DNA of 64,000 bases from an uncultured Dehalococcoidales bacterium (GCA_964547375.1 CAZJMW010000001.1:2319-66318); one strand, 5' to 3'; positions 3,938 through 63,385 are shown, numbered from the stretch's first letter. Program-made: numbers and translations. Notes: a model not told the origin generated them from the sequence alone.

Positions 3938-4576
3938 ATGGATTATCAGGCAGCGAGAATTGCGCTGGTAAATAATTTTAAAGCAGACATCGATGATGAG
4001 CGGGTTCTGAAAGCCATATTGCGCGTACCACGGGAGTTATTTGTTCCCCCGGAAGAGAAGCACCTGGCTTATGAAGACAGGCCTTTGCCCATCGGTATGG
4101 GGCAGACTATTTCACAGCCGTATATAGTGGCTCTAATGACGCAGGCACTGGAGCTTGCAGTTGAGGAGAAAGTCCTCGAAATAGGTACGGGAAGCGGTTA
4201 TCAAACAGCTGTTTTAGCTGAACTGTCGAAATTGGTGGTTACCGTTGAACGTATTCCCGAATTAGCCCGGGCGGCAAATGACAGGCTAAATGTACTTGGA
4301 TATAAGAATATTATTGTTCAGATAGCTGAACCAGATATTGGCTGGCAGGCCGGAGCGCCGTATGACGCAATCATTGTTACGGCTGCAGCCCCGTTTATTC
4401 CGGAAAAACTTCTGGCACAACTGGCGGTTGGAGGAAGGATGGTAATACCGGTGGGTTCTCGTTATGAACAGGACTTATATAAAGTCATAAAACACGAACA
4501 TAAAAGCGAAATCCACAATTTGGGTGGATGCCGCTTTGTGTCTCTAATTGGGGAAGACGCCTGGGATGAAGAGTAA
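3938..4576 (+). CDS. pcm: Protein-L-isoaspartate O-methyltransferase
   Basis: Motifs GQTISQPY and VLEIGTGSGYQ. I prefer ATG 3938 (MDYQAARI) over the track's TTG 3929. Confidence 0.9.
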   Translation: MDYQAARIALVNNFKADIDDERVLKAILRVPRELFVPPEEKHLAYEDRPLPIGMGQTISQPYIVALMTQALELAVEEKVLEIGTGSGYQTAVLAELSKLVVTVERIPELARAANDRLNVLGYKNIIVQIAEPDIGWQAGAPYDAIIVTAAAPFIPEKLLAQLAVGGRMVIPVGSRYEQDLYKVIKHEHKSEIHNLGGCRFVSLIGEDAWDEE

Positions 4577-5192
4577 TCAAGAAATCACAGGAACGCTAAG
4601 CCCTACTATCTCTTTCTGGAATCAATTTCCTGATATCGGTATTAAAAAATGGATTGTCATCTCCTCTGTTCTTTTTACTGTCGGCCTGTTAATTGGAATT
4701 ATTAACCCCAGTATCGATATATTCAACAGCCTGGATTACCTGATAGATATCGCCGGTAGCACAGAATCCTTATCCTCATTCGGCATTTTCATTTTCTACA
4801 TGATTAACAATATCTTTAAAATTATATTATCCTTTGTTTTTGCGCCATTTTTTTGCATCATGCCTGTTTTATCTCTAATTGTTAACGGTTGGATAATATC
4901 AAATGTGGGATATTTTATTGTCGAGATTAATCAATATTCAATCGGATATTACCTGATGGGTATATTGCCGCACGGTATATTTGAAATCCCGGCTTTAATC
5001 ATTGGACAGGCGGCTGCTTTAGGCCTGGGTGCTATGACGATTGCGGCAGTATTTTCAAAAGACAGGCGGGAAGAGTTATTCCCGTATCTAAGAAAAAGTA
5101 TAAAATATCTCGGCGTGGTAATTTTGTTACTGATTATTGCGGCCGGAATTGAGGCATTTATTACACCGCCGGTATTAGGTCTTTTTGAATAA
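4566..5192 (+). CDS. SpoIIM-like (DUF95) integral membrane protein
   Basis: Multi-TM protein with the GILPHGIFEIPALIIGQAAALG motif typical of the stage II sporulation protein M family. ATG 4566 overlaps the pcm stop. The track start is TTG 4548. Confidence 0.7.
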   Translation: MKSNQEITGTLSPTISFWNQFPDIGIKKWIVISSVLFTVGLLIGIINPSIDIFNSLDYLIDIAGSTESLSSFGIFIFYMINNIFKIILSFVFAPFFCIMPVLSLIVNGWIISNVGYFIVEINQYSIGYYLMGILPHGIFEIPALIIGQAAALGLGAMTIAAVFSKDRREELFPYLRKSIKYLGVVILLLIIAAGIEAFITPPVLGLFE

Positions 5193-55503: not shown

Positions 55504-55580
55504 GGGCGGTTAGCTCAGTTGGTTAGAGCGCTGCGTTGACATCGCAGAGGTCATTGGTTCAAATCCATTACCGCCCACCA
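55504..55580 (+). tRNA. tRNA-Val (anticodon GAC), CCA encoded
   Basis: Cloverleaf by hand. Acceptor GGGCGGT/ACCGCCC. D arm GCTC-AGTTGGTTA-GAGC. Anticodon stem CTGCG/CGCAG with loop TTGACAT. T loop TTCAAAT. Terminal ACCA. One T-T mismatch in the T stem. Confidence 0.9.
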
Positions 55581-55695: not shown

Positions 55696-57234
55696 TTATT
55701 TCACACTTATTACAAAGCTTCCCTGGCGGGTAAGGGTGTATTTATTGAAAGCCAGCGCTTCGGCGTCGTGATTATACAACGAAAGTATGACTACATTGAA
55801 TCGCTCGTTTATCTTTGTCTTAGCCTGAAATAGGGCTTTAGTACATGGATTACTGTTGGAACCGCTATTTAAGACGCCGTATTCCAGTTTCAGCAGTTCT
55901 GAAAGCTTTCCGGAGGGCTTTGTGTCAATCTTGCTTAGCCGGTTGATATTTGACCGTAACCTTAAAACATCCGGCGGGTTCAGATATTTTACGGGGTTTG
56001 AATGGATAACCAGTTTTTTAACAATCCGCAGCGCATATGAAACAAGCTGGTTCGATGAAAGAGCAGGAGTAGTCATTACTACCTTTTCTTTATCATAGAC
56101 AGCAAAAGAGGCAGGAATATTGGCTTGCCCCAGGGTTACTGCGGTTATCAGTATATCGTGAGCCAGTTTATCCAATTCATCATCATCGCCGGCTACAAGG
56201 TTAACCAGGATAACAGCCGGCTGCCCGCGGAATTCGTCAAATTCCTTGCTTATCAGTTCATCGTATTTAACAGAAGCCTTCCAGTTGATGTTTTTTAAAC
56301 TGTCGCCTGCCTGGTATATCCGGTTGCCATAGTATTCAATTCCCTGCCTGAAACCCTGTAACGTTTTGGAAACATTAGTGTTCGATATAAGCGGAAGATT
56401 CCCCTGTCTTGTTCCCGACATATACCTCAACGCCAGCCACGTGGCATATTTGGCCCTGGGAATCACAACCAGTTTGACCGGTTCCATTTCAAATGATGTC
56501 TGAAACAGGCTCCACCGGTCGATGGCATAACCTTTTAATTTAACAATTGATGGCCCGGATAAAGCGGGTGTTATCGATAGTTCCAGTGACATTGGTGTGT
56601 CTTTTAAATAAATGCGCTTGTTTTTTATTTTTATCCAATCGAATTGCGATTCAAAGAACAGAGCCATTCCGTATCTAATAACCGGACTCAATTGGATTTC
56701 TAAATCCTCCGTTTTCCCGGCAAGAATACGATACAGGATTTGTTCTTCCTTAACGGGTTTATGAGGTACTCTTCTTATAACAAATAAGCTTAAACAAATG
56801 AAATAGATAATTAGCACAGAGGCGGATATGATGAGTGTTAAATCGGATAAAAGTAGTGCTAGTGCAAAGATTGATAAAATTATAATGCATTGAACAATAT
56901 ATAGAGTGGTAGGGCGACGTTTAGAGTGTTGACTATAAGATTTTATTATGTGAGCGCTTTTACTTAGACTTCGAGTAATCAGCAGCAGTACCGGCAAAGC
57001 AAATAAAGGTGCAATGTATTCCGGCAACATGGTTGAATATAACAATGCAATCGCAAGGAATATGAAGTACTGGGAAAGCACATCTATAACCGGTGAAATA
57101 ATGCGGCGCCATTGGAAAAGGTAAAACGCCAGTAGTATTATCGGTATAATGGAAAAATTGGATGGCGAAAGAATCGCAGCGACTAATAAAGTTGCGATGA
57201 CATAAAATTTCAAAAAGATTGCCAGTACTTTCAT
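55696..57234 (-). CDS. DUF58-domain protein with N-terminal polytopic membrane region
   Basis: 512 aa. About 5 TM helices, then the DUF58 core motif YQAGDSLKNINWKASVKYDELISKEF. Confidence 0.7.
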   Translation of the reverse strand: MKVLAIFLKFYVIATLLVAAILSPSNFSIIPIILLAFYLFQWRRIISPVIDVLSQYFIFLAIALLYSTMLPEYIAPLFALPVLLLITRSLSKSAHIIKSYSQHSKRRPTTLYIVQCIIILSIFALALLLSDLTLIISASVLIIYFICLSLFVIRRVPHKPVKEEQILYRILAGKTEDLEIQLSPVIRYGMALFFESQFDWIKIKNKRIYLKDTPMSLELSITPALSGPSIVKLKGYAIDRWSLFQTSFEMEPVKLVVIPRAKYATWLALRYMSGTRQGNLPLISNTNVSKTLQGFRQGIEYYGNRIYQAGDSLKNINWKASVKYDELISKEFDEFRGQPAVILVNLVAGDDDELDKLAHDILITAVTLGQANIPASFAVYDKEKVVMTTPALSSNQLVSYALRIVKKLVIHSNPVKYLNPPDVLRLRSNINRLSKIDTKPSGKLSELLKLEYGVLNSGSNSNPCTKALFQAKTKINERFNVVILSLYNHDAEALAFNKYTLTRQGSFVISVK

Positions 57235-57245
57235 AACATCCGTAA

Positions 57246-58199
57246 TTACATATCAAATCTTGGTACGGGTATCGAATCGAGCGTTTTATTTATAATCATG
57301 CGCGGCGTAACATCGTCCATTTCTGCTTCCGGCCTGATGCGCAAGCGGTGTTCGATGGTAAAATATGCCAGGCGTTTAACATCATCGGGAATAACGTATT
57401 CCCTGCCGTCCAGTACGGCAAACACACGGGCGCATTTGAAGATAGAGATACCACTCCTGGTGCTTAATCCGTAAATCACGTCAGGGTCGGTGCGAATAGT
57501 ATGTACTATAGAAGTGATATATTCTATGATATCCGGAGAAACATGCACATGCTTTGTTAACTCCCGGAGTTCCATTATTTCATTTACTGTAACTACCTGT
57601 TTTATATTAGGGGCATCAATGGCATCTATCTCGCTGATAACCCGCATTTCTTCATCGCTTGACAAATATTGACTGTAAATGCGCAACAGGAAACGGTCCA
57701 TCTGAACATCTGTAAGCGGGTAGGTGCCCTCACCTCCGGCAAGTACCTGAGTTGCAATTACCATAAACGGGAGCGGCAATGGCATTGTTTTACCTTCAAT
57801 AGAAACTTGGTGTTCCTGCATAGCCTCCAGGAGGGCGGACTGGGTGCGTGGCGTGGTTCTGTTCAGTTCATCCGCCAGTATTATATTGGCAAAAATGGGT
57901 CCTTCCAAAAAGGAGAAAGTCCCCGTAGTGGAATAAAGGTTGAAACCGGTGATATCGGCTGGCATCATATCAGGGGTAAACTGTATCCTTTTAAATGTTC
58001 CGCCGACAACTTTAGCGAAGCTTTTAGCGATGGTTGTTTTTGCCGAACCGGGGGGGCCTTCAATAAGAACATGCCCTCCGGCTATAAGACCTAACATAAG
58101 CCCTTTAATAATCTCGTCCTTACCTATTACCGCCTTATTAATTTCACTTTTTATTTTTTTATATATCTCCGCAACCATTTCAATATCCATATTAACCAA
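57246..58199 (-). CDS. MoxR-family AAA+ ATPase
   Basis: Walker A GPPGSAKT and Walker B ILADELNR. About 317 aa, typical MoxR size. Confidence 0.9.
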   Translation of the reverse strand: MVNMDIEMVAEIYKKIKSEINKAVIGKDEIIKGLMLGLIAGGHVLIEGPPGSAKTTIAKSFAKVVGGTFKRIQFTPDMMPADITGFNLYSTTGTFSFLEGPIFANIILADELNRTTPRTQSALLEAMQEHQVSIEGKTMPLPLPFMVIATQVLAGGEGTYPLTDVQMDRFLLRIYSQYLSSDEEMRVISEIDAIDAPNIKQVVTVNEIMELRELTKHVHVSPDIIEYITSIVHTIRTDPDVIYGLSTRSGISIFKCARVFAVLDGREYVIPDDVKRLAYFTIEHRLRIRPEAEMDDVTPRMIINKTLDSIPVPRFDM

Positions 58200-59088
58200 T
58201 TGCCTCCTCCTTCTTTAATGCAAAAGCAGCCACCGGAATAAAAATAATAGCTATCATACCCAGTAATACATAACGGTTATTTAAAATTTCTTTTACTTTT
58301 TCCATACTGATCTTTGAAACATCGAGGGGTGTCTTTGTAATATGCGCTCTATCGAGATAAATCTTTTCGGGAGTATTGTCAAATGTAATTAGATAATCTA
58401 TAAATTTGTAATTATCATTCTGGCCTACCATGGTATTTATCGTTATGCTTGGGTCTGATACCAGCATTATCTTACCTTTCCCAAAATCGTATTCAGCCGC
58501 TACAACCAGCGGGCCTTCCTGTTCATCTTCATCAAGTATCCCATTGTTATTTGCATCCGCAAAACTGGTTGGGGATGACCTGGCTAAAATATGAGATTGC
58601 CCGACATTAATCAGATTAGAAGCGTGATTTAAGGTGATTGCTTCTATGCCGCTTTCGATTATCTCTGCAGAGAAATCGGTGGTGCGCGGTAAATATTGAT
58701 TTTTATAATTAAAAAGCGGGTCTAGCAAAATCATATTACTGAAGCGTGCTTCTATTCCAAGAGACTCCAGTATTTGATTGCCGTAACCGAAATCGTCCAA
58801 CAGTAAAACAAGATTGCCTTGATTTATAAACTCTTTAATCGATAACAGTTCTTCATCGGAATACTCAATATAGGGTATACAGACCAATACTTCATGTTGA
58901 GCTCGGGGGGATATCTCAGCCAGTGAATCAGTATTCTCGGCATTGAATTCCTTTACAAAATTATGGATGCCGTTCCAGGCTTTGTTACTCGACATAAAGT
59001 CATTAATAGATGGATAAAACAGGATTCCCAACAGCGACACTGTCAGGATAATACCAATAATTGCCAGTATAAGGCCTGAAATTCTCAT
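58192..59088 (-). CDS. DUF4350-like membrane-anchored protein
   Basis: N- and C-terminal TM helices flank an extracytoplasmic domain. GKGKIMLVSDPSITINTMVGQNDNYKF resembles the DUF4350 signature. Assignment is from memory. Confidence 0.55.
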   Translation of the reverse strand: MRISGLILAIIGIILTVSLLGILFYPSINDFMSSNKAWNGIHNFVKEFNAENTDSLAEISPRAQHEVLVCIPYIEYSDEELLSIKEFINQGNLVLLLDDFGYGNQILESLGIEARFSNMILLDPLFNYKNQYLPRTTDFSAEIIESGIEAITLNHASNLINVGQSHILARSSPTSFADANNNGILDEDEQEGPLVVAAEYDFGKGKIMLVSDPSITINTMVGQNDNYKFIDYLITFDNTPEKIYLDRAHITKTPLDVSKISMEKVKEILNNRYVLLGMIAIIFIPVAAFALKKEEAIG

Positions 59089-59089
59089 T

Positions 59090-61033
59090 TTAAAGCCGCT
59101 CTTTCCTTATGGCATCGGAATAGTTCCGGCTCACAGCAACGTCTTCTTCGTTTGGCTTGCAACCTGAATAAAGCAACCTTTCGATAAAGCCGGTAAACTC
59201 GTTGAATAGCTGGCTTAGAAATCCCAGTTTCGGACTGGTTTCTTCGGCATATTCCCGGATGGTCTGCTGCGGTTTTATTGTGGTAGATGTAATTTCAGCG
59301 ATAATTTTCAGGCTTCGGATATACCAATCTACAATGCGGGCGTACAGGCTGTTTTTTTCATGTTTATTCCAGATGATCACTGTATCCGGGCCTATTTTTG
59401 CTTTAGTTAACGATATTGGAGCAGGCGATTGCTCTTCTGTAAGTCCTGTTCCCAATTGCGGGCTCCATCTACTGCGTTTGCCTATTTTCACACGCAGCAC
59501 TATGGTGAGAATAATAAGAACTGCCAGGATAATTCCAAGATTGGCGACATTTATAACATATATATCCCGGTTGACTTCAAGCGGTGCATTCCACGCTTCG
59601 GAAGGTTGAATTTGAATATTAATTTGTTGATAACCAAGCAGGCTGAATTCCATCCCTTTATTAATACCGCCTGTAAATGCCCCCTCCATCGATGATTGCG
59701 ACTGGGCTGTTTTATCACTCATTTCCATGGTTATTAACGCATTTTTTAGGGGACCTAATTCAGAGTACAACTCACCATCGATGCTTATTGTCCCCGGAAT
59801 CAGACATAGGTTAGGTAATGAAAGGTCGAGATAAGTCTTGGCTTGAGATACGGTAATATTTAAAAAAGAGATGACGGGAGAGTATCGCTTGTAAGCGGGG
59901 GATGATGCTATTATCGTATGATTTCCCAGAGCTATTTCATTGGGGATATCGACGGGAGTATTAAAAGATGTTTCCGTAATCACATTTGAAGTAAAATTGT
60001 CGTCAATATGGATATTGAGCAAACGGTCATTCATGACAGGAGAGTCTTCATAGTCAATTGTTCCGTATAAAGCAATCGATTTCCCCGGATATGCCTGCCC
60101 TGTAATAAAAAGCTCCAGTTCGCAGGAATAGTACTTTACGAATATGTTAGAAATCCGGCTTACCGAACCCAAATAGCTGCCGATATCGGAGCCCTCGGGG
60201 TAATAGATTGCCTGTATTTCTATTTCAGGGATGTACCAATACGGCAACTCTAATTTTCCCCGGTAATTTCCCTGGTCATCGATAGCAAACTCTGAATAAC
60301 TGATACCGTTTAAAGCAAGAACTACGTTTCTACCGGGTAACGGCTTACCATTTGAGTATAATGAGACGGTAAAATTGATTTCATCTCCGACAAAGGCTTC
60401 CAGCGGTTCAACTGTAAGCATCACCTGGCTTGGTTCATAGTTGTCATGCAAATGTTCTGGGTCAACCAATGGACGGCTGAACAAATCCAGCATATCCTCA
60501 ATCCGTTGCAATTTATCGAGGATTTCATTGTAAATCAATTTTAAATCGCTTTGAGAAGATTCTTTTTCTATCGCCAGGTAACTTCCGATAGCTTCCACAG
60601 ACGAAGTAACCTGCCCAAGCTCATCATATGCGCGGGGTAAATTTTCGATTATCTGTCGGCGGATTATCTCGGCTTCATCCAACAGATATTGGTATAATAA
60701 TTCGCCTTCTCTCTGCCAAAAAGCATCGATCTCATCTATTGAGTAAGACAATGCTATGCTATAGTTATTGAAGTCTTCGGTTGACGGATTAAGTTTACCG
60801 GGTATATTGGCAAACGGCATAATAACAAGCAGGCTTTCAGTCTTTTCGGGATTAATTTGTAAAATAGTATCGAGGGAATTCGAATAGTATTGAAGCAGAG
60901 AGATGCTGCTGAATATCTCACCGGCTGTTTCGGGGTCTTCGTGGTATTCGATTCCGTCCGCATAGATGGTTAAAACCGGGCTGAAAACAACTGCCAGCAT
61001 CAATAATATTCCCGTAATACATCTCTTTACCAT
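59090..61033 (-). CDS. Large membrane protein: signal/anchor, Ig-like extracytoplasmic region, TM, C-terminal DUF4129-like domain
   Basis: 647 aa. Late TM helix (NLGIILAVLIILTIVL) followed by ...TIREYAEE...FIERLLYSG...EDV, resembling DUF4129. Confidence 0.55.
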   Translation of the reverse strand: MVKRCITGILLMLAVVFSPVLTIYADGIEYHEDPETAGEIFSSISLLQYYSNSLDTILQINPEKTESLLVIMPFANIPGKLNPSTEDFNNYSIALSYSIDEIDAFWQREGELLYQYLLDEAEIIRRQIIENLPRAYDELGQVTSSVEAIGSYLAIEKESSQSDLKLIYNEILDKLQRIEDMLDLFSRPLVDPEHLHDNYEPSQVMLTVEPLEAFVGDEINFTVSLYSNGKPLPGRNVVLALNGISYSEFAIDDQGNYRGKLELPYWYIPEIEIQAIYYPEGSDIGSYLGSVSRISNIFVKYYSCELELFITGQAYPGKSIALYGTIDYEDSPVMNDRLLNIHIDDNFTSNVITETSFNTPVDIPNEIALGNHTIIASSPAYKRYSPVISFLNITVSQAKTYLDLSLPNLCLIPGTISIDGELYSELGPLKNALITMEMSDKTAQSQSSMEGAFTGGINKGMEFSLLGYQQINIQIQPSEAWNAPLEVNRDIYVINVANLGIILAVLIILTIVLRVKIGKRSRWSPQLGTGLTEEQSPAPISLTKAKIGPDTVIIWNKHEKNSLYARIVDWYIRSLKIIAEITSTTIKPQQTIREYAEETSPKLGFLSQLFNEFTGFIERLLYSGCKPNEEDVAVSRNYSDAIRKERL

Positions 61034-61052
61034 ATGGTATAACCTTAACTTG

Positions 61053-61304
61053 TCACTTTAGAATTTCAATTACTTCCATGGTTACAACTACCAGAAATGC
61101 GGCAAATATAATAGCGCTTAAACCGTTTAAAGCGGATTTTGCCCTGGGATTAAGATAAACATAAAGCAGGGTTATAATTAAATAAGCGATGGCATTTACA
61201 ATAAAATAAACCGAGATGTCATCCTGGCCAAGAAAAGCCAGTAGTACATTTATAATACCGAAGGCAATTGCCAGTGAGATAATCAGCCTGTTGAAAATTC
61301 TCAA
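61053..61304 (-). CDS. Small three-TM membrane protein, hypothetical
   Basis: 83 aa, hydrophobic. 4-nt overlap with the upstream gene. Confidence 0.5.
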   Translation of the reverse strand: MRIFNRLIISLAIAFGIINVLLAFLGQDDISVYFIVNAIAYLIITLLYVYLNPRAKSALNGLSAIIFAAFLVVVTMEVIEILK

Positions 61305-62095
61305 GTCAATACCTCTAATGTAATATGATATTTACCTTTATGGTACTTCTCTTCGAGTATACGAACCGGCTTCTGCAACGCTTCACTGGAAACGGCAGCA
61401 GTAATCGAGGCTATCGGGCTTCCCAGGCAGTAGTAGTACCAGATTTCCTCATATGCCATTTTGGCATTTCTGACATCGATATTAACTCGGGCTTCGGTCA
61501 TATCTACTTTTACACCATCCGCGATATCCAGTAAACCGGTAAGAATGTAGCCGATTGCCGCCTCTATTTCATAAGCATTCGGCCCGGGCGGGCTTTCAAG
61601 CATTTCCAGATTGATGCTGCCCGGAGTGGTAACTGCAATTGCCATATCATCTGCATCAGGGCCGTATCTGACAATCAGACGGCCGGGTAATTTATCCCTA
61701 ATTTTCTTGATATTGCAATCTTCTTTTACAGGTATAATCGCTTGCGGATAACCGTTTCTCATCTTAGCTGGTAAATAAATGGCCTTGTTTCTGATTCCGA
61801 TTTCCTCTAAAAGTGCGGCTGTATTTTCCATGCCGGCCTTCAACAGTATTTGAGATGCTTCGGGTGAAATATAAGGACGTGCACTTGCCAGAAAGAAACT
61901 GGCCAGGCCTAAAATTATCGATGAAAGGGCGGCAGCAGTCAGCGGCACCGATGCAAAAAAGAAATAGAACAAGGGGGCCATAATAGCACCGGCTACGGAT
62001 AGTATAATACCTAATATCTTATACGGATTCTTCACAAACGCAACCTCAAAAACTATTATGCTTATTATAGAATAAAAGATCAAGCAATTGGGCAT
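61301..62095 (-). CDS. Membrane protein with 2-3 N-terminal TM helices and a soluble C-terminal domain, hypothetical
   Basis: First gene of the co-directional cluster. The start is uncertain (ATG 62095 or downstream GTG). Confidence 0.5.
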   Translation of the reverse strand: MPNCLIFYSIISIIVFEVAFVKNPYKILGIILSVAGAIMAPLFYFFFASVPLTAAALSSIILGLASFFLASARPYISPEASQILLKAGMENTAALLEEIGIRNKAIYLPAKMRNGYPQAIIPVKEDCNIKKIRDKLPGRLIVRYGPDADDMAIAVTTPGSINLEMLESPPGPNAYEIEAAIGYILTGLLDIADGVKVDMTEARVNIDVRNAKMAYEEIWYYYCLGSPIASITAAVSSEALQKPVRILEEKYHKGKYHITLEVLT

Positions 62096-62315
62096 TTATC
62101 GGCAAAAAAATGAAAATATTTAAAATATTAGTGAACAATTCAAATACTTAGTCCTGTAACTATAAAAGGACAGAACATAGTTATCGCCTCCCTTCGATGG
62201 ATTACATAAAGTAATTAAAACTACATAAAAACAGCAGTACTTTAGTCCTTGAATTCAAAAAAGTGCATGAAAATGACCATAATAGTAATTGACAAACCAT
62301 ACGTCTAATGATTCA

Positions 62316-62588
62316 ATGAATTTATTATACATAAAAAGGATTGATGCTAAATTGTTAATAAACGCTTTAGGGGCCACTTTGAACCAAGCCTCGGTAGGGG
62401 TGCTCTTAATGTCATTAGGTGTTTCTCTGCTGATTACACTATTTGCATCCCTGGTTGTCAGGGAGCTATCAACCGGGAATGGTTTTACGTCAAAGCTAAT
62501 CAATGCCAACTTTGATGTAGTATTAATTCCTGCCTTTTTCATCTTCTGTTTTATATTTATTGTTAAATTAGTGACTGCAGTCACATAA
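62316..62588 (+). CDS. Possible small two-TM membrane protein (90 aa) in an AT-rich gap
   Basis: The plus-frame ORF has two hydrophobic segments. A fully overlapping minus ORF (62255..62584) is less protein-like. No clear SD. Confidence 0.25.
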   Translation: MNLLYIKRIDAKLLINALGATLNQASVGVLLMSLGVSLLITLFASLVVRELSTGNGFTSKLINANFDVVLIPAFFIFCFIFIVKLVTAVT

Positions 62589-62836
62589 AACTTAACTGAT
62601 CAAATATATAATCACTGTATTCTAAAAAATAGCAAATCATACTAAGCGATACGATTCTGTTATTTATATTCTGATTTTAGATGTGTATGGTCAATATGGT
62701 ACTTTTAAATAGAATTGTAAAATAAACTAGTGGACAGTAATGGACAATACGGCATATTTGTACTATTATAAAATTAATAAATTAAACTATTGATATAAAG
62801 AGGATTTTCACGTAATAACAATATTGGGTGTTATGA

Positions 62837-63385
62837 ATGCAAAATAGCAAGAAAGACCTGATGACATTAAAAGAAGTGGCGTTATATCTGCGGGTAACGG
62901 AAAAAACGATACACAGGTTATTAGATAAAAATGCCATCCCCGCTTCCAAGGTGGGGAAATTGTGGCGCTTCGATAGAGAAGTATTAAATGACTGGTTAAA
63001 AGACAATGCGGTTTCCGCAAAAAATCGCATTCTGGTAATTGATGATGAGAAGAATATCGGCAAATTGATTGAAATGACTCTCGGGAAAAATGGGCATGAG
63101 GTAATTATTGCTGATTCGGCTTTGCAGGGACTGGAAATTGTAAAAAATGAGGATCTGGACCTCGTCTTTCTTGATTTAAAAATGCCCGATATCGATGGAG
63201 CTGAGCTGTTTAAAAAGATTCGGCAAGCCAAACCGGAAATACAGGTTATTATCGTAACAGGTTATCCTGAGAGCGAACTGATGATGAAAGCATTAAAGTA
63301 TGGCCCCTTCGGCGTAATGCAGAAACCATTTAGCGGCCCCGATATAATACAGGTTGTAAACTGTTTCTTGCGAATTCCTCAATAA
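62837..63385 (+). CDS. Response regulator with N-terminal excisionase/MerR-type HTH and C-terminal receiver domain
   Basis: MTLKEVALYLRVTEKTIHRLLDKNAIPASKVGKLWRFDREVLNDWL, followed by REC (ILVIDDE...DLVFLDLKMPDIDG...IIVTGY). Confidence 0.8.
   Translation: MQNSKKDLMTLKEVALYLRVTEKTIHRLLDKNAIPASKVGKLWRFDREVLNDWLKDNAVSAKNRILVIDDEKNIGKLIEMTLGKNGHEVIIADSALQGLEIVKNEDLDLVFLDLKMPDIDGAELFKKIRQAKPEIQVIIVTGYPESELMMKALKYGPFGVMQKPFSGPDIIQVVNCFLRIPQ

Follow-up and report, generated by a model that had tools for sequence, protein, structure and literature searches.

A six-gene MoxR, DUF58 and DUF4350 block in a Dehalococcoidales genome: an apparent bacterial copy of an archaeal membrane-associated system

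Introduction

Do six tightly packed genes in a 64,000-nucleotide (nt) stretch of DNA from an uncultured Dehalococcoidales bacterium (GCA_964547375.1 CAZJMW010000001.1:2319-66318) make up a single system, and of what kind would it be? The whole stretch is termed the window below. The genes, numbered 1 to 6 in order of transcription, specify a DUF7982 membrane protein, a DUF8044 mini-protein, a surface protein with a DUF4129 tail, a DUF4350 protein, a MoxR-family AAA+ ATPase and a divergent DUF58 protein (Table 1). An earlier note on this DNA, made from its sequence, had described a membrane-associated MoxR/DUF58/DUF4350/DUF4129 cluster, and the neighbourhood census given below shows that the block is indeed kept in relatives. 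The note regarded such clusters as being without an assigned function. However, a published prediction that they act in secretion or membrane remodelling does exist (PMC5898192).

That prediction is due to Makarova, Galperin & Koonin (2015, Biochimie; PMC5898192), who described operons in which arCOG01314 (DUF4350) is found with a COG0714 MoxR ATPase and a protein combining immunoglobulin-like (Ig) and von Willebrand factor A (vWA) domains. The operons also hold Ig-like/S-layer-like proteins, DUF1616-family proteins (a frequent, not obligatory, component) and small membrane proteins with 2-3 or 5 transmembrane (TM) helices. The authors found the system 'in a wide range of archaea and in several bacteria', and their prediction was a new type of secretion system or a complex for remodelling membranes (PMC5898192). 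Comparison of gene content, order and domains indicates that the present block is a bacterial copy of this archaeal DUF4350, MoxR and Ig-vWA (DUF58) system.

Gene arrangement and conservation in Dehalococcoidia

Six co-directional minus-strand open reading frames (ORFs) between positions 55696 and 62095 were confirmed by an ORF check of the window, and the coordinates and tight junctions previously reported for them were reproduced. With longest-ORF starts, genes 1 and 2 overlap by 4 nt and genes 4 and 5 by 8 nt, and the gaps after genes 2, 3 and 5 are of 19, 1 and 11 nt. Gene callers put the MoxR start three codons in, at an ATG, and the 8-nt overlap of genes 4 and 5 then becomes a 1-nt gap.

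A genome-contig search with a single protein reached 4 loci, from close relatives only, and 80 further metagenome loci were retrieved with gene 1 for a census in which each gene is counted only at loci whose contig has room for it. (Contigs and loci are given L or P numbers where they need to be told apart.) Dehalococcoidia metagenome-assembled genomes (MAGs) have all six genes, at 54-84 % identity, with their order unchanged. Gene 1 is followed by gene 2 in 72 of 74 loci with room, by gene 3 in 28 of 30, by gene 4 and by gene 5 in 22 of 24 each, and by gene 6 in 17 of 19, and the order of the block is kept in about 30 Dehalococcoidia/Chloroflexota contigs. Such recurrence, in 17-28 independent contigs with 30-80 % identity, goes far beyond what chance would give. 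At loci where gene 1 is ~60 % identical to that of the window, identity is 60-66 % for gene 5, 41-61 % for gene 2, 37-51 % for gene 4, 41-48 % for gene 6 and 29-38 % for gene 3.

Three loci break the pattern: L045 has genes 1 and 2 without genes 3 to 6, L087 has genes 1 and 2 with an 89-amino-acid (aa) gene 3 fragment, and in L080 gene 1 is directly followed by the MoxR gene. These could be rearrangements, decay or truncations, or assembly chimeras.

Counterparts in archaea

The block is not confined to bacteria. A gene 1 homologue, P0303 (~32 % identity), belongs to a contig of 61-69 kb (L008/L009/L091) which bears a complete block in the order DUF7982, DUF8044, a 640-aa DUF4129 protein, DUF4350, MoxR and DUF58, followed by DUF1616, and all six products are detectably homologous to those of the window. 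The taxonomic labels of this contig conflict, and the named relatives of its gene 1 are Dehalococcoidia. However, genes for ribosomal proteins L18Ae, L31e, L39e and S19e and for prefoldin are 16-19 kb from the block, and because these archaeal ribosomal proteins are encoded on the same contig, it is archaeal and the earlier doubt is settled. A second contig, L007/L092, is AT-rich and matches a Thermoproteota MAG; its order is GT2, GT1, DUF1616, DUF1616, gene 1, an uncalled gene 2, then genes 3, 4, 5 and 6. With all six families in the same order on both contigs, the block is common to the two domains, which implies horizontal transfer. The suggestion that there are counterparts in Actinobacteria and archaea was thus well founded, as mycobacterial Rv3689-Rv3693 and these archaeal contigs were found.

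[L008/L009/L091 corresponds to European Nucleotide Archive (ENA) k141_374045 and Joint Genome Institute (JGI) Ga0190367_1000087. Its genes cluster at >=90 % identity with short NCBI contigs binned as 'Bathyarchaeota' and as 'Thermoplasmata'; since the same clusters carry both labels, at least one of them is wrong.]

The ATPase and its DUF58 partner

Domain assignments were a test named beforehand, and profile searches support the one to DUF4350 directly and those to DUF4129 and DUF58 through orthologues. For MoxR the case is straightforward. Gene 5 matches AAA_3 with 181.2 bits (9.6e-54; cut-off 27) and AAA_lid_2 with 66.7 bits (1.6e-18; cut-off 22.7), its ATPase motifs are intact and family-typical (P-loop GPPGSAKT, Walker B IILADE), and it lacks a TM segment, which places it in the cytoplasm. 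It also matches Pfam bpMoxR at 55 bits, far below AAA_3, and an NCBIfam scan of the block gave generic AAA+ matches only. The gene 6 start is 11 nt after gene 5, so that a MoxR gene is directly followed by a DUF58 gene.

While MoxR passes its cut-offs, the DUF58 call is supported at the level of the family. In the window protein DUF58 (PF01882) scores 18.5 bits against a cut-off of 23.4; matches are present in 37 of 40 full-length gene 6 orthologues (E <= 0.01, best 6.6e-08), the archaeal positional orthologues score 28.1 and 32.2 bits, above the cut-off, and several orthologues are named DUF58 by NCBI. Gene 6 thus appears to be a divergent member of DUF58. Its AlphaFold2 (AF2) model (predicted local distance difference test score, pLDDT, 79.5) has six TM helices in residues 1-155, a beta-sandwich at 160-258, a disordered linker and an alpha/beta domain at 340-510. 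Foldseek with the whole model gave matches only to the beta-sandwich, which were PapD/MSP/ASH-type Ig-like folds, and sequence searches against the PDB, with the single sequence and with a family profile, gave nothing meaningful. The motif DxSxS of the metal-ion-dependent adhesion site (MIDAS), expected at the end of strand beta-1, is absent from the vWA-like domain, which has NLVAG there; it is likewise absent from all bacterial and archaeal gene 6 orthologues checked.

On which side of the membrane is this soluble part? The loops rich in K and R are WRR after TM2, SKSAHIIKSYSQHSKRRPTT after TM4 and RRVPHKPVK after TM6, and because of these loops the positive-inside rule predicts that the Ig and vWA-like part is cytoplasmic, on the same side as MoxR. 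Applied to an archaeal 2-TM orthologue, the rule gives the same placement. The number of N-terminal TM helices in orthologues ranges from ~2 (archaeal L007) up to 6 in the present clade. The fusion of a polytopic domain to DUF58 that had been pointed out is therefore present, but as a matter of degree (~2-6 TM helices).

The surface protein and the DUF4350 protein

Gene 3 encodes a signal/anchor helix, an acidic ectodomain of ~470 aa (69 D+E against 26 K+R), a TM helix at about 499-517 and a tail predicted to be cytoplasmic. Within the ectodomain a coiled-coil-like part (weak coiled-coil matches at residues 80-210) is followed by beta-sandwich domains, for which matches were obtained in 6 orthologues (CarboxypepD_reg in 5, Big_3_5 in 1). 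After the TM helix is a basic juxtamembrane segment and then, at residues 584-633, DUF4129 (PF13559). The match is sub-threshold in the window protein, 17 bits against a cut-off of 24.8, though the DUF4129-like tail previously noted on this 647-aa protein has support from the family: 21 of 26 orthologues match (E <= 0.01, best 4.2e-09), and the positional orthologue in L008 does so above the cut-off, with 35.9 bits at the equivalent C-terminal position. Gene 3 can on these grounds be taken as a divergent DUF4129 member. Searches of the PDB with the single sequence and a family profile gave nothing meaningful. Gene 3 evolves faster than any other gene of the block, and the contrast of its identity values with those retained by MoxR would be typical of exposed surface proteins.

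The 298-aa product of gene 4 had been described as a DUF4350-like bitopic protein. It passes the Pfam cut-off over the full length of the family (63.5 bits against 30.4, profile positions 1-180 of 181) and has weak matches to ABC_transp_aux and IFT52_GIFT. Hydrophobic segments at residues 6-24 and 273-291 border an acidic region (37 D+E against 17 K+R), and the domain is predicted to be extracellular, between N- and C-terminal TM helices. This is the architecture described for arCOG01314, namely a signal/anchor, one C-terminal TM helix and a large domain outside. DUF4350 appears from these matches to be related to the GIFT domains (GldG, IFT52 and the oligosaccharyltransferase (OST) subunit Wbp1), which are proposed sugar binders (PMC7226087).

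The two small membrane proteins

Genes 1 and 2 had been considered two extra small membrane proteins added in this version of the cluster. Their own Pfam families, the near-constant succession of gene 2 after gene 1 and their presence in archaea instead indicate that both are conserved core parts, and membrane proteins with 2-3 and with 5 TM helices were already among the components published for archaea (PMC5898192). DUF7982 (PF25939) is precomputed on gene 1, where it is marked weak, and on nearly all its homologues, and DUF8044 (PF26161) on gene 2 and nearly all of its homologues; a local Pfam scan of the two gave no match even at E = 10, the local copy apparently being without PF25939 and PF26161. 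DUF7982 is a small family: in a set of 1.84 billion proteins it forms 272 clusters at 50 % identity, and almost all are ~245 aa long. Hydropathy and charge give gene 1 two N-terminal TM helices and a domain of ~180 aa that is probably cytoplasmic. A 61-sequence profile found no relatives in Pfam or the PDB; PDB searches, with the single sequence as well as a family profile, gave nothing meaningful, the only matches being to de novo designed proteins.

The gene 2 product, which overlaps gene 1 as mentioned, is easily overlooked. It is present yet uncalled in L090 (10723-10983, E = 2.7e-40) and in archaeal L007 (10669-10938, E = 3.2e-05). In some contigs gene callers skip the DUF8044 gene and also clip the TM-rich DUF58 N-terminus (L090 14858-16465 is an example), and because of this, annotation-based censuses would undercount both genes.

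Start of gene 1 and the likely promoter

Where does the block begin? Alignment of the window with L003, L004, L005 and L011 revealed a nearly invariant segment upstream of gene 1, beyond which the sequence is unalignable. It has sigma-70-type elements, a -35 TTGATC at 62083-62078 (TTGACC in relatives) and a -10 CATAAT at 62060-62055 separated by a 17-nt spacer, and then GAGG at 62047-62044, 8 nt before a GTG. A consensus scan located the same promoter site independently of the alignment, and the segment probably serves the operon as promoter and ribosome-binding site. The ATG at 62095, from which the 264-aa gene 1 of the earlier note was read, is missing from relatives, and L005 has an ATG where the window has the GTG at 62035. 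Because the 60 nt between are conserved and non-coding, the upstream ATG is unconserved and gene 1 homologues are mostly of 244 aa, the start is most likely the GTG, and the shorter gene is favoured over the longer.

Table 1. Features of the six-gene block and its surroundings (positions are those of the window; strand as + or -)
Feature	Position	Strand	Basis
Gene 1, ORF of the earlier note, 264 aa	61301-62095	-	longest-ORF start
Gene 1, most likely form: DUF7982 (PF25939) protein, 244 aa	61301-62035	-	GTG start, alignment of relatives
Gene 2: DUF8044 (PF26161) mini-protein, 83 aa, three TM helices	61053-61304	-	precomputed Pfam, hydropathy
Gene 3: bitopic surface protein, 647 aa, DUF4129 tail	59090-61033	-	Pfam, hydropathy, charge
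Gene 4: DUF4350 (arCOG01314-type, GldG/GIFT-like) protein, 298 aa	58192-59088	-	PF14258
Gene 5: MoxR-family AAA+ ATPase, 317 aa (314 aa from ATG at 58190)	57246-58199	-	AAA_3, AAA_lid_2
Gene 6: divergent DUF58 protein, 512 aa	55696-57234	-	AF2 model, orthologue PF01882 matches
Likely operon promoter and ribosome-binding site	62044-62083	-	consensus scan and alignment (putative function)
tRNA-Val(GAC), flank marker outside the system, convergent with gene 6	55504-55580	+	tRNA/Rfam scan
SpoIIM-family gene	4566-5192	+	PF01944, E = 3.3e-26
Coiled-coil and zinc-ribbon protein, 74 aa	54583-54807	+	weak DUF7310 match
Hydrophobic ORF, 78 aa	62352-62588	+	called on identical Logan contig
HTH_17-receiver protein, 182 aa, divergent from the block	62837-63385	+	

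Surroundings of the block in the window and elsewhere

The block has BioY, tRNA-Val and a protein with HTH_17 and receiver domains as its neighbours in the window. It is single-copy and syntenic among core bacterial housekeeping genes (riboflavin genes, BioY, tRNA-Val, EF-G, MutL), and the remaining window is bacterial core genome, with Tex, CarB and PcrA/UvrD as well as EF-G and MutL, the riboflavin genes also being near. The GC fraction is 0.415 for the block against 0.447 for the rest of the window, and 0.316 for positions 62001-63000. A terminator scan found no intrinsic terminator 3′ of gene 6, and an Rfam scan of the flanks no RNA element besides the tRNA.

Two features of the flanks had been singled out. 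The tRNA-Val is present, but L005 retains it together with the BioY and riboflavin flank, so its adjacency is plain synteny and not a special feature. A tRNA-linked genomic island was considered and rejected in view of this shared flank, the core-genome character of the window and the small GC difference. The gap at 62036-62836 is AT-rich, as had been said, but it is kept in near-identical contigs only, being unalignable with other relatives, and it bears a called ORF on the opposite strand. That 78-aa ORF has no family match and is kept only in the near-identical contigs L001 and L010. Beyond it, the 182-aa protein is a fusion that begins with an HTH_17 domain of excisionase type and ends with a response-regulator receiver; this order is unusual, and the protein is beside the block elsewhere only in L043 (33 % identity). 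On the other flank the 74-aa zinc-ribbon protein is between the riboflavin genes and BioY, and L005 retains a small ORF at that position. The SpoIIM-like gene that had been reported is real, and at ~50 kb it is as far from the block as was said.

In other genomes the neighbours are of a different sort. At least 11 contigs, from bacteria and archaea alike, have DUF1616 (pfam07760, arCOG02884) beside the block, and four contigs (L007, L008, L090 and P0111) have nucleotide-sugar, flippase, glycosyltransferase and deacetylase genes next to it. HVO_2173, a DUF1616 protein of Haloferax volcanii, belongs to a cluster of five N-glycoproteins (PMC8241124), while arCOG02884 was still dark matter in a 2019 listing. 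Among the fetched loci of Dehalococcoidia and archaea for which annotation was seen, none had SpoIIM linked to the block.

Other neighbours were seen in single or few contigs. In the P0111 contig (ENA ERZ1426829) a surface protein of >2373 aa with Big_2 and Glucodextran_B domains adjoins the block, and there is also a 581-aa protein with a faint CARDB match; both are possible clients of the system. A family of ~498 aa without a Pfam match recurs beside the block in L090 (16509-18005), L040, L071 and L052, and is absent from the window.

What the block may do

Taken together, the products could form an ATP-powered module that works from the inside out in assembling or remodelling the envelope, as one membrane-spanning complex and not as a soluble chaperone. 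The layout is drawn from hydropathy, charge and one AF2 model. Outside would be the acidic, fast-evolving ectodomain of gene 3 and the GldG/GIFT-like, possibly sugar-binding, domain of gene 4; about 14-15 helices from genes 1, 2, 3, 4 and 6 would be in the membrane; and MoxR, presumably a hexamer by analogy with characterised MoxR ATPases, would be in the cytoplasm with the Ig and vWA-like part of gene 6, the DUF4129 tail of gene 3 and the globular domain of gene 1. The positive-inside pattern puts the last three on the MoxR side. MoxR with its membrane-anchored, MIDAS-less DUF58 adaptor would engage the DUF4129 tail, the gene 1 domain or both, using ATP, and this would drive assembly, insertion or conformational switching of an external complex of genes 3 and 4. 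Such a complex would organise or anchor surface (glyco)proteins, among them DUF1616 proteins, S-layer-like proteins and giant adhesins. In other bacteria MoxR and DUF58 recur beside membrane proteins with DUF4129 tails, which suggests DUF4129 as a putative docking element. That the block is a MoxR-driven membrane complex which assembles or remodels envelope (glyco)protein structures via a DUF58 adaptor and a DUF4129 tail is proposed with moderate confidence, the chances being evenly balanced.

Several points weigh against this proposal. The coupling of MoxR, DUF58 and DUF4129 on which it turns is hypothetical, and MoxR ATPases are also active in unrelated settings, for example in inserting cofactors or in tolerance of stress. 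With MIDAS lost from gene 6, the usual metal-mediated capture of ligands cannot apply. The AF2 model of gene 1, from a shallow alignment, is poor (pLDDT 57.9) and unusable for a fold search. No DUF1616 match was obtained by tblastn anywhere in the 64 kb (the gene may be encoded elsewhere in this host's genome), the window has no glycan or S-layer genes, and the link to surface glycoproteins comes from other genomes. The published guess for the Ig-vWA protein was that it is 'likely secreted', that is outside the cell (PMC5898192), the opposite of the topology predicted here. Full-text literature searches found no experimental follow-up of the arCOG01314 system.

The explanation preferred by Makarova et al. 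2015 was a protein-secretion conduit, with the membrane proteins forming a channel and MoxR energising export of large surface proteins encoded nearby. It accords with the membrane or extracellular location of most components, with the resemblance of DUF4350 to GldG of the ABC transporter associated with gliding and the type IX secretion system (T9SS), and with the giant surface proteins and DUF1616 genes which adjoin the block in some contigs. However, Pfam, NCBIfam and profile searches revealed no component like a known translocase, secretin or channel, and no candidate cargo gene is adjacent in the window. It is also general knowledge that MoxR proteins (RavA, CbbQ, NorQ) are established as remodelling chaperones and not as translocation motors, and a conduit is considered unlikely. 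Alternatively, the block could be a helper of membrane remodelling, vesicle formation or cell division that works with proteins of the SpoIIM/RDD type, as is suggested by the actinobacterial cluster and by the other of the two options of Makarova et al. Rv3694c and Rv3695 adjoin, and are co-regulated with, the DUF58, MoxR and DUF4350 genes of mycobacteria, bacterial SpoIIM genes are reported beside genes for vWA proteins and COG0714 ATPases, and the window does have a SpoIIM gene. Against this, that gene is distant and SpoIIM is unlinked in the annotated loci seen, and SpoIIM-vWA-ATPase clusters are, according to the paper, 'never with other surface proteins', unlike the present block; this role is decidedly unlikely.

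A classical MoxR chaperone, for maturation of a membrane enzyme or cofactor insertion, or a Bat-like module for stress or aerotolerance, has the precedent of RavA-ViaA, NorQ-NorD and CbbQ-CbbO, and MoxR with DUF58 constitutes the MRP type to which Bat operons belong. Here, though, MIDAS is lost, no enzyme gene is co-conserved, the partners are surface-exposed and non-enzymatic, and the block has no vWA or TPR genes of the BatA-E type, all of which make such a chaperone improbable. Finally, the block could be imagined as a MoxR-vWA ternary system for threat sensing or conflict (Kaur et al. 2020; Esr of Actinomycetes), with the variable ectodomain of gene 3 as its sensor. Esr uses MoxR, vWA and a surface filament, gene 3 is fast-evolving and gene 5 has the bpMoxR match; the latter is explained by the shared ATPase fold and is far exceeded by AAA_3. 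A Pfam scan of the six products gave no beta-propeller, sensor, kinase, FHA, effector or toxin domain, a PADLOC scan gave nothing specific, and the block is single-copy among core genes with GC only slightly below that of the window. A conflict system is very improbable.

The envelope-assembly proposal can be taken a step further. Cultured Dehalococcoidia have S-layer-like walls and no peptidoglycan. The block could be a self-contained machine, exchanged between domains, that builds or maintains a proteinaceous, glycosylated envelope, the Dehalococcoidia copy being acquired archaeal-type envelope biogenesis; acting across the membrane through DUF4129 tails and a vWA adaptor that lacks MIDAS, the cytoplasmic AAA+ ATPase would bring about the assembly or secretion of components of the surface layer. 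This extension is tentative and on balance doubtful. If it is true, the block would represent a new class of system for envelope assembly or secretion.

For a system predicted by comparative genomics since 2015, what is added here is a parts list for a six-gene core which includes DUF7982, DUF8044 and the DUF4129-tailed surface protein, a corrected start and a likely promoter. To these come the identical order in bacteria and archaea, a revised topology, the loss of MIDAS, family-level support for DUF58 and DUF4129, and the recurrent DUF1616 and glycan context. The result is a concrete model, open to test, of the coupling between MoxR-DUF58 modules and surface proteins, with tractable relatives in Haloferax, Thermococcus and Mycobacterium smegmatis, and a candidate envelope machine for Dehalococcoidia, whose envelope biogenesis is poorly understood.

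Relationship to known systems

Among systems in which a MoxR ATPase works with a vWA adaptor from a neighbouring gene are RavA-ViaA, NorQ-NorD and CbbQ-CbbO. Their adaptors have a MIDAS metal site and their targets are soluble or membrane enzymes. The present block lacks MIDAS, and the proteins that accompany its ATPase are located in the membrane or at the surface and are not enzymes. The MoxR-vWA ternary conflict systems (Kaur et al. 2020) and Esr need beta-propeller sensors, kinases or effectors.

Also comparable are the MRP modules, for which a MoxR gene followed by a DUF58 gene is the subfamily criterion (Snider & Houry 2006, in the form in which it is cited in PMC12067865). They comprise MoxR and DUF58, with or without vWA, and include the Bacteroides Bat operon, mycobacterial moxR1 and the bifidobacterial PFNA cluster. 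The order of MoxR and DUF58 is the same here, and PFNA (FN3-MoxR-DUF58-transglutaminase) also has a large Ig-like (FN3) surface protein and a membrane protein. In contrast to those modules, the present block is without a transglutaminase, kinase, BatA-E or MIDAS-bearing vWA protein and has DUF4350, DUF7982 and DUF8044 instead. The Bat operon is marked by the MIDAS-vWA proteins BatA and BatB and the TPR protein BatC; here there are no vWA or TPR Pfam matches, and gene 6 is the last before the tRNA.

In mycobacteria the orthologues of Rv3689, Rv3691 (DUF4350), Rv3692 (MoxR), Rv3693 (DUF58), Rv3694c (SpoIIM) and Rv3695 (RDD) are adjacent and co-regulated (PMC8191103). This MoxR2 region likewise has a membrane protein, DUF4350, MoxR and a DUF58 membrane protein side by side. 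It differs in that SpoIIM and RDD are adjacent there, and the cell envelope is very different.

The archaeal system of Makarova et al. (PMC5898192) is the one to which the block corresponds. Differences are that the host here is a bacterium (Dehalococcoidia), that no DUF1616 gene is associated within the window, and that the DUF58 protein has six TM helices with a soluble part predicted to be cytoplasmic; DUF7982, DUF8044 and DUF4129 components are not named explicitly in that paper. Shared are DUF4350, a COG0714 MoxR ATPase, an Ig and vWA protein of DUF58 type, an Ig-like surface protein and small 2-3-TM proteins. The beta-sandwich and alpha/beta domains of gene 6 agree with the 'Ig-like + vWA' architecture of the archaeal partner, and DUF4350, the ATPase and the Ig-vWA protein are adjacent as genes 4, 5 and 6. 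The block is a system of an already described kind, and nothing in it overturns current views.

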